Sequence record: PP889466.1
Reading direction: 5' to 3' (one strand)
Length of the DNA stretch: 64,000 nucleotides
From: Klebsiella phage phi1_146015
Positions 30,657 through 31,551 of the stretch are shown piece by piece (position 1 is the first letter of the stretch; each line of letters opens with the position of its first letter). The position numbers and the translations under genes are program-made. The notes beneath the pieces were generated by a model. The model saw only the letters and a list, made by a program, of their open reading frames with translations. It made no database searches and was not told the origin of the DNA.

Positions 30657-30702
30657 TATTAGCGCCTTCAATAAATAAAGAAAAATTGAGGGCGCTAATA
30701 TG
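30657..30702 (+). promoter_or_regulatory. RBS-sequestering hairpin (10-bp perfect stem TATTAGCGCC / GGCGCTAATA) with a late-promoter-like AATAAATA in the 24-nt loop, at the homing endonuclease start
   Basis: The right arm covers the GAGGG SD region and the A of the ATG. The loop carries ATAAATAA (30670-30679). Confidence 0.6.
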
Positions 30703-31551
30703 TTTTACACAATCTACAAAATAACCAACACTATCAATGGGCGTGAATATATCGGCGCTCATAAAACTGATAATCTCGATGATCGATACATGGGTTCTGG
30801 AAAGAACATCAAACATGCTATTGATTTCTATGGCATTGAATCTTTCGTAAAGGAAATATTGTATGTTTTTGATACGGAAGAGGAAATGTATCTAAAAGAA
30901 GCTGAACTCGTAACAGACGAGTATATTTCGCTTCCTCACACATACAACATCAAACCCGGTGGTAAAGGCGGAACGGCCTACGAACAAAGCGAAGAACATC
31001 GACGCAAAAACAGTAATGCGCTAAAAGGAAGAGAAATCACTCCATTACATCGCGATCGGATCTCCCGTGCATTGAAAAATCATGTCCGTAGTGAAGAACA
31101 TCAACGGAAACTGAGTGAAGCATCAAAGATTGCTGTTAGTACACCCGAACATAAAGAAAAGATGTCTGCTCATTTTACAGAACTGTATAAATCTCGTCCT
31201 GAATTGAAACAGCAAATATCATCTTCTGTCAAAGCACATTATGCTAATGAAACAGAAGAAGAGAAAAATCAACGTCGATTGCGTCATACAGGGAAGGTTC
31301 GGTCGGAAGAAACCAAACAAAAACTATCCATTGCTCATAAAGGAAAACATACAGGAGAGAAAAATCCTATGTTCGGCAAACCTGCATCGAATCGCCGTAT
31401 GGTTTCTGGTGATGGTGTTGTGTATGGTTCCGTCAAAGAAGCTGCGGAAACACTGGGGTTGTCGCAAGGAACAATCGTTGCTCGATGCAAATCACAGAAA
31501 AATGTAAATTGGTTCTATGTAGGTGTTGACTTGCCGAATCAAATCGATTAG
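30700..31551 (+). CDS. GIY-YIG homing endonuclease (Seg-like) with NUMOD-type repeats
   Basis: [22 protein letters not shown] (GIY-YIG), followed by repeated EEH(R/Q)RK..S / PEHKEKMS helix-turn-helix-like DNA-binding repeats. Free-standing between nrdD and nrdG. Confidence 0.8.

Follow-up and report, generated by a model that had tools for sequence, protein, structure and literature searches.

A probably mobile Seg-type endonuclease cassette beside nrdD in a Klebsiella phage, with a predicted late-only hairpin and promoter switch

The gene that directly follows nrdD in Klebsiella phage phi1_146015 is probably best explained, as a whole, as a mobile Seg-type homing endonuclease cassette with a switch for late-only expression, in which a hairpin covers the ribosome binding site and a predicted late promoter lies within that hairpin. 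The feature occupies positions 30657–31551 of a 64,000 nt stretch of sequence record PP889466.1, here called the window. A sequence-only reading of the window had compared the locus with T4 I-TevI and I-TevII. Every computational or comparative test that we could apply to the core of this reading, a free-standing GIY-YIG endonuclease whose ribosome binding site is sequestered on read-through RNA and freed on a late transcript that begins within the hairpin, speaks in its favor. Several parts of that reading were revised in the process, and they are discussed below where the evidence is given.

Genomic setting

The region is 99.8% identical to that of Klebsiella phage phi1_146010, and 99.3–99.7% identical to the corresponding regions of Cronobacter phages GAP161 and leE and of other Pseudotevenvirus phages. 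By sequence, we place the source phage in Pseudotevenvirus, as an RB43/GAP161-like relative of T4 (T4-type Straboviridae). A literature search for GAP161 together with homing endonucleases found no paper.

Along the locus, two DNA methyltransferase genes and a thioredoxin-like gene are followed by gene 49 (endonuclease VII, 28050–28532), nrdD, the endonuclease ORF, five further ORFs and nrdG. Gene nrdD (28529–30646, + strand) encodes the large subunit of the anaerobic ribonucleotide reductase. Its product matches the Pfam NRDD profile at 3e-180 with profile positions 1–562 of 562 covered, and also contains ATP-cone and Gly_radical domains. The activating enzyme is encoded by nrdG (34222–34713, + strand; Pfam Fer4_12, 1.5e-50, and Radical_SAM). 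An Rfam scan of positions 27900–32000 (E ≤ 1), an interval that spans nrdD but not nrdG, matched no family and no intron. Gene nrdD had been described as intron-free, and the scan agrees. Because nrdD is a complete ORF of 705 aa with a full-length NRDD match, and because no intron-like RNA was found, the endonuclease gene is free-standing: it lies between genes, not in an intron or intein. It adjoins nrdD as originally described, but the placement between nrdD and nrdG holds on that side only, with 2.7 kb and five ORFs of unassigned function intervening before nrdG.

These five ORFs (31601–34219) are conserved, and the two that were scanned against PHROGs fell into families 1203 and 10543, both of unknown function. 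A conserved 198-aa ORF (31601–32197) gave a weak, sub-threshold PspA/IM30-like match in Pfam. Upstream of it, within the 3′ end of the endonuclease ORF, is a sigma-70-like TTGACT-17-TAGTAT (31526–31554) that recalls the downstream-gene promoters embedded in T4 seg and mob genes; with 9 of 12 positions it is a weak match, and the region holds no significant excess of such sites.

The endonuclease protein

The endonuclease ORF (30700–31551, + strand) encodes 283 aa. Pfam searches detected NUMOD3 (40.5 bits, cut-off 20.4) and the I-TevI_DNA-bd domain (PF20987; 41.3 bits, cut-off 27). When the N-terminal 104 aa were scanned alone, they matched SegE_GIY-YIG (PF19835) at 33.1 bits against a cut-off of 25, and the general GIY-YIG family (PF01541) at 18.9 bits, under its cut-off of 22.6. 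The protein also matched PHROG 314, homing endonuclease (1e-63), and its residues 222–275 matched the DNA-binding domain of I-TevI (PDB 1I3J, 4e-5). Residues Y6, Y17-I-G19, E67 and N83 are invariant between this protein and T4 SegB, which is experimentally active (PMC2988022). We assign the product to the Seg-type GIY-YIG enzymes, as a full-length member. The SegE_GIY-YIG, NUMOD3 and I-TevI_DNA-bd matches, together with the complete nrdD, bear out the first identification of a free-standing GIY-YIG homing endonuclease.

Many T4 seg and mob genes are tabulated as activity not determined (PMC2988022), and the Pfam GIY-YIG match on the full-length protein is sub-threshold; a decaying or domesticated remnant, with upstream elements that are functionless relics, would be compatible with both observations. 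We consider such a remnant very improbable. The ORF is intact with every domain present, the motif residues are common to this protein and the active SegB, and the gene is 99–100% identical across phages of Klebsiella, Cronobacter, Enterobacter and Escherichia. The patchy distribution described below, which fits recent mobility, also argues against a relic.

A hairpin over the ribosome binding site

The sequence-only reading had proposed a perfect 10-bp stem with a 24-nt loop. Its two 10-nt arms are exactly as placed, TATTAGCGCC at 30657–30666 and GGCGCTAATA at 30691–30700, with the ATG at 30700, but its length was underestimated: six further pairs (U·G, U-A, C-G, A-U, A-U and U-A) make a stem of 16 bp with one G·U and a loop of 12 nt. 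The left arm covers 30657–30672 and the right arm 30685–30700 (both + strand). Because of these added six pairs, the SD sequence GAGG (30688–30691), 8 nt before the ATG, is wholly within the stem, and the A of the ATG at 30700 is paired as well, as had been proposed. The rest of the ATG and the first endonuclease codons are paired by an outer helix. In the MFE structure of the shorter context this helix joins UGUUUU (30701–30706) with AGAACA (30646–30651), and in that of the longer context it joins UAUGUUUUACAC (30698–30709, + strand) with GUGUGAAACAUA (30630–30641), which belongs to the last nrdD codons.

Chance does not account for so stable a fold. For the 81 nt around the hairpin the MFE was −24.8 kcal/mol, compared with an average of −7.7 for shuffled sequences (z = −7.67; 0 of 200 shuffles were as good), and for 121 nt of read-through context it was −33.5 kcal/mol (z = −8.65). 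The RNA from 30683 onward, which does not include the left arm, folded at only −2.6 kcal/mol (z = +0.8) and appears unstructured; its ribosome binding site is therefore predicted to be free. By calculation, read-through RNA is more stable than late RNA by about 30 kcal/mol. RNA folding had been suggested as a check on the arrangement, and its outcome is favorable.

Prick1, a divergent relative with an endonuclease 75% identical to the one studied here, retains the hairpin, although a bulge has replaced one A-T pair. The MFE of the Prick1 read-through RNA is −36.4 kcal/mol (z = −6.0), and its outer helix forms with one change in each arm (the window's G·U is A-U, and the window's G-C is G·U). 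A comparison of this hairpin across the two divergent relatives, Prick1 and Earwig, found no true compensatory change.

The hairpin could instead mainly serve nrdD, as a terminator, 3′ stabilizer or mRNA processing site. At this position, directly after nrdD, relatives that lack the endonuclease gene have a canonical, GC-rich terminator, AAAAAGCCCCTTGCGAAAGTGAGGGGCTTTTG (3255–3285 of locus L002 and 2735–2765 of locus L003), which the hairpin would replace, and AUGUUUU comes right after the hairpin. A terminator scan, however, called no terminator-like site in the interval from nrdD to the endonuclease gene. The hairpin has a 12-nt loop, and the U run consists of just 4 residues and begins 2 nt past the stem; on these three points we rejected the hairpin as an intrinsic terminator. 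Moreover, its right arm coincides exactly with the SD and start codon of the gene that follows, and the same design recurs at Seg loci with unrelated upstream genes. We judge a main role in nrdD expression to be improbable, and a function as terminator or mRNA stabilizer to be unlikely.

A late-promoter motif within the hairpin

The late consensus of T4, TATAAATA, spans positions −13 to −6. At the level of the motif, AATAAATA (30670–30677, + strand) departs from TATAAATA at the first base only; it would occupy −13 to −6 of a promoter with a predicted +1 at about 30683, inside the loop. The longer string AATAAATAAAG is at 30670–30680, and the statement that a T4 late-promoter-like string lies between the two 10-nt arms was correct. 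Most T4 relatives show little conservation of the T at −13, where A or T is common (Nolan et al. 2006).

Within the window, NATAAATA with A or C at −13 is found at the correct distance before bona fide late genes. The octamer AATAAATA itself occurs at 8121, 55 nt upstream of the major head protein gene (8176), and at 28016, 34 nt upstream of gene 49. The variant CATAAATA is upstream of the tail tube gene and a distal tail-fiber gene, and the consensus TATAAATA is upstream of the scaffold, proximal fiber (gp34-like) and second distal fiber (gp37-like) genes. Six copies of AATAAATA are present in the 64 kb, two of them inside ORFs and not placed like promoters, and in a loop rich in A and T the chance occurrence of such an A-rich octamer would not be very surprising. 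Prick1 retains AATAAATA intact, with substitutions at 4 of the other 10 loop bases. We regard AATAAATA at 30670–30677 as a credible late promoter, predicted from these comparisons.

The gene 49 leader (28016–28052) appears to hold a second copy of the same regulatory logic, a motif within a hairpin. There, AATAAATA (28016–28023) shares bases with the left arm of a hairpin of 10 bp in which the start codon of gene 49 is paired. The read-through RNA folds at −21.6 kcal/mol (z = −4.4), and the RNA from the predicted late start at about 28029 is unstructured. This arrangement agrees with the one described for T4 gene 49 (ref 60 in PMC2988022).

Two alternative cassettes downstream of nrdD

The endonuclease gene was present in 23 of 165 related phage records. 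The associated nrdD tail and hairpin were found only in 23 records, 21 of them at least 99% identical, and all 23 carry the endonuclease. This patchy distribution fits recent mobility of the gene.

SemperBestia and leN, which lack the gene, are 95–100% identical to the window through nrdD as far as the glycyl-radical RRTCGYLG codons. The break comes at about 30582, identity to relatives without the gene drops to 53% in the last stretch of nrdD, and homology returns at about 31571, 20 nt past the endonuclease stop (right edge 31552–31570, + strand). In place of the endonuclease, these relatives carry a different cassette of about 1.1–1.3 kb that contains another nrdD tail, the terminator and two to three small ORFs (PHROGs 8646, 10107 and 6990, all function-unknown). 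The comparison indicates that the endonuclease belongs to one of two alternative cassettes of about 1 kb located 3′ of nrdD; it spans about 990 bp (30582–31570), replaces the small ORFs and brings its own last ~21 nrdD codons (30582–30646, + strand), which follow directly after the glycyl-radical codons. A simple insertion between nrdD and nrdG, as assumed in the sequence-only reading, does not describe this exchange. Comparison with junctions that lack the insertion had been expected to define the homing site, and it yielded the cassette edges (~30582 and ~31571) but not the exact site.

The homing target is probably in or near the conserved glycyl-radical segment of nrdD, as inferred from the position of the left edge. 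By analogy with SegF, SegG and mobE (PMC2988022), the divergent nrdD tail is likely an immunity or co-conversion marker. In Earwig, a recombinant, a Prick1-type nrdD tail is joined to a window-type hairpin and endonuclease.

Gene nrdD is mosaic among close relatives elsewhere too. The patch at 29229–29420 is only 58–87% identical to relatives without the endonuclease, and at best 89% identical in any of four relatives. Within the glycyl-radical codons (30548–30581) there are about eight clustered, mostly synonymous differences unique to phages of the window type. We rejected these differences as a general immunity mark, since Prick1 and Earwig, which have the endonuclease, keep the sequence of phages without it at this place; the mosaic structure elsewhere in nrdD is a further point against such a mark.

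We also searched for an I-TevI-like operator by comparing positions 30640–30705 with the junction of relatives without the gene, which is the presumed target. The best local match scored 8 against a shuffle mean of 9.0, and 464 of 500 shuffles were as good. This comparison of promoter region and junction is a weak test, and it gave no support to I-TevI-style autorepression.

Comparison with known systems

A 2010 review by Edgell, Gibb and Belfort (PMC2988022) describes the late-promoter and ribosome-binding-site hairpin mechanism for I-TevI, and similar arrangements for I-TevII, I-TevIII, T4 segB and Aeh1 mobE; sequestration of the ribosome binding site is used by other late T4 genes as well (PMC2988022). 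A Seg-like gene had been put forward as a new setting for this switch, a point on which the published segB case has priority (PMC2988022).

We used T4 segB as a positive control for the motif and the hairpin. In segB, CATAAATA is at exactly −30 from the ATG, the same spacing as AATAAATA here, such that both genes have NATAAATA starting at −30, with a first base other than T (C in segB, A here). The segB hairpin, with its GAACAT/ATGTTC stem, folds at −19.4 kcal/mol. Upstream of each gene is a GAACA(T) element whose partner is AUGUU(C), and the hairpin covers the SD and AUG. Both are also free-standing, and their products belong to the same protein family, with 40% identity overall and a NUMOD3 region in each. 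The two differ in site, which is the nrdD 3′ flank here and a tRNA cluster in T4; in hairpin strength, which is greater here (−24.8 to −33.5 versus −19.4 kcal/mol); in the promoter, which lies mostly in the loop here and not in the left arm; and in the C-terminal domain, which is I-TevI-like here.

The likeness to I-TevI and I-TevII, in which a late or middle promoter lies inside a structure that sequesters the ribosome binding site, extends to the regulatory logic and to the GIY-YIG enzyme. I-TevI has a domain homologous to the C-terminal DNA-binding domain found here (PF20987; 1I3J), and I-TevII also targets nrdD. Unlike those two intron-encoded enzymes, this gene lies outside any intron, and the published rationale of protecting intron splicing therefore does not apply to it.

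Aeh1 mobE, likewise a free-standing endonuclease gene, adjoins or lies within a ribonucleotide reductase gene and has a hairpin over the ribosome binding site and a late promoter, both experimentally supported (refs 57 and 58 of PMC2988022). It differs in that it encodes an HNH enzyme, and in that it is situated in the aerobic nrdA and splits its host gene. The sequence-only reading had assigned T4 mobE to the position examined here. This was an error: T4 has mobC at nrdG/nrdD and mobE at nrdB/nrdA (Table 1 of PMC2988022). T4 mobC, which encodes an HNH enzyme, shares the landing zone directly 3′ of nrdD.

Outside the genus, a Seg protein of ACG-C40 (Escherichia, T-even) is the closest homologue, at 48% identity. 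Its gene is exactly between nrdD and nrdG, the same landing site as the gene studied here. The ATG overlaps the nrdD stop in ATGCATAG (3492–3499 of locus L005), and we found no hairpin and no late-promoter motif in the region upstream of this Seg gene. These features suggest that it is translationally coupled to nrdD and is not controlled by a switch. Since ACG-C40 does without it, the switch is not obligatory in this endonuclease lineage, and related enzymes at the nrdD 3′ landing site seem to have adopted two different expression strategies. The public annotation of ACG-C40 begins the endonuclease CDS 96 nt too late.

Survey of Seg-like loci

A survey of Seg-like genes in IMG/VR and GenBank yielded 45 non-redundant loci, for which 89 other ORF starts at these loci served as controls. 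The consensus TATAAATA was found within 70 nt upstream at 35 of the 45 Seg loci versus 13 of the 89 controls. The motif combined with at least 70% pairing of the SD and AUG was found at 22/45 Seg loci and 8/89 controls (Fisher p = 4e-7), and the median MFE was −24.4 kcal/mol for Seg loci versus −13.5 kcal/mol for controls. Distances from motif to ATG at the Seg loci formed three clusters, and the −30 of this gene is within the cluster from −24 to −31. In a related Seg subfamily whose members could be aligned, compensatory double changes affected 5 of 21 stem pairs while TATAAATA was invariant. The design recurred at Seg loci with unrelated upstream genes. Together these data argue that the promoter-in-hairpin design is a common and selected property of the Seg endonuclease family, of which the gene described here is a typical, though rather strong, instance.

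The survey bears on a further possibility, that the hairpin is a constitutive damper and AATAAATA is no working promoter, with the endonuclease kept at a low level at all times. Translation would then occur from read-through RNA, through breathing of the hairpin or its partial unwinding by ribosomes that end at the nrdD stop. The layout offers some basis for this: the nrdD stop is 11 nt upstream of the stem, and terminating ribosomes must open the outer helix, because the last nrdD codons form part of it. The apparent translational coupling in the ACG-C40 homologue points the same way, as do the non-consensus first base of the motif and the copies of AATAAATA inside ORFs. A terminating ribosome, however, would be expected to reach just the first ~3 bp of the 16-bp stem. 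In addition, the motif is invariant in Prick1 despite changed adjacent loop bases, its −30 spacing recurs in T4 segB and in one cluster of the surveyed loci, the major head gene has the identical octamer upstream, and 35 of 45 related loci possess a consensus motif. We disfavor this explanation and consider it unlikely, since the motif is conserved and its spacing is typical of the family.

Discussion

Our preferred explanation remains the mobile Seg cassette with a late-only switch. Early in infection, transcription of gene 49 and nrdD would continue into the endonuclease gene, as the scan called no terminator-like site on the way from nrdD. On this read-through RNA, the 16-bp hairpin and the outer helix would bury the SD, the AUG and the first codons; we propose that the endonuclease is therefore not translated. 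Late in infection, gp55-directed RNA polymerase would use AATAAATA (30670–30677) and start at about 30683, in the loop. The resulting RNA would be without the left arm and unstructured, and we propose that it is therefore translated. The endonuclease would presumably cut the nrdD 3′ region allele of co-infecting relatives that lack it, and the cassette, with the nrdD tail that belongs to it, would be copied in during repair.

A more specific idea, possible but doubtful in our view, is that the promoter-in-hairpin element is a portable late-only module of the Seg clade that here has become integrated with nrdD twice, once through the tail, as immunity, and once through the outer helix. In that case, ribosomes that finish nrdD would adjust how strongly endonuclease synthesis from early RNA is held back.

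The mechanism of the late-only switch can be inferred convincingly for this gene from sequence comparison, and the design itself is already published; the current view of how such switches work is unchanged by this case. The analysis supplies a regulatory annotation for a gene that is named just "homing endonuclease" in public records. The left edge of the ~990-bp cassette, just past the glycyl-radical codons, suggests where the cleavage site could be sought. Lastly, the gene is a clean example of the arrangement, and together with the count over 45 loci it leads us to predict that Seg-type endonucleases usually carry their own late-only switch.
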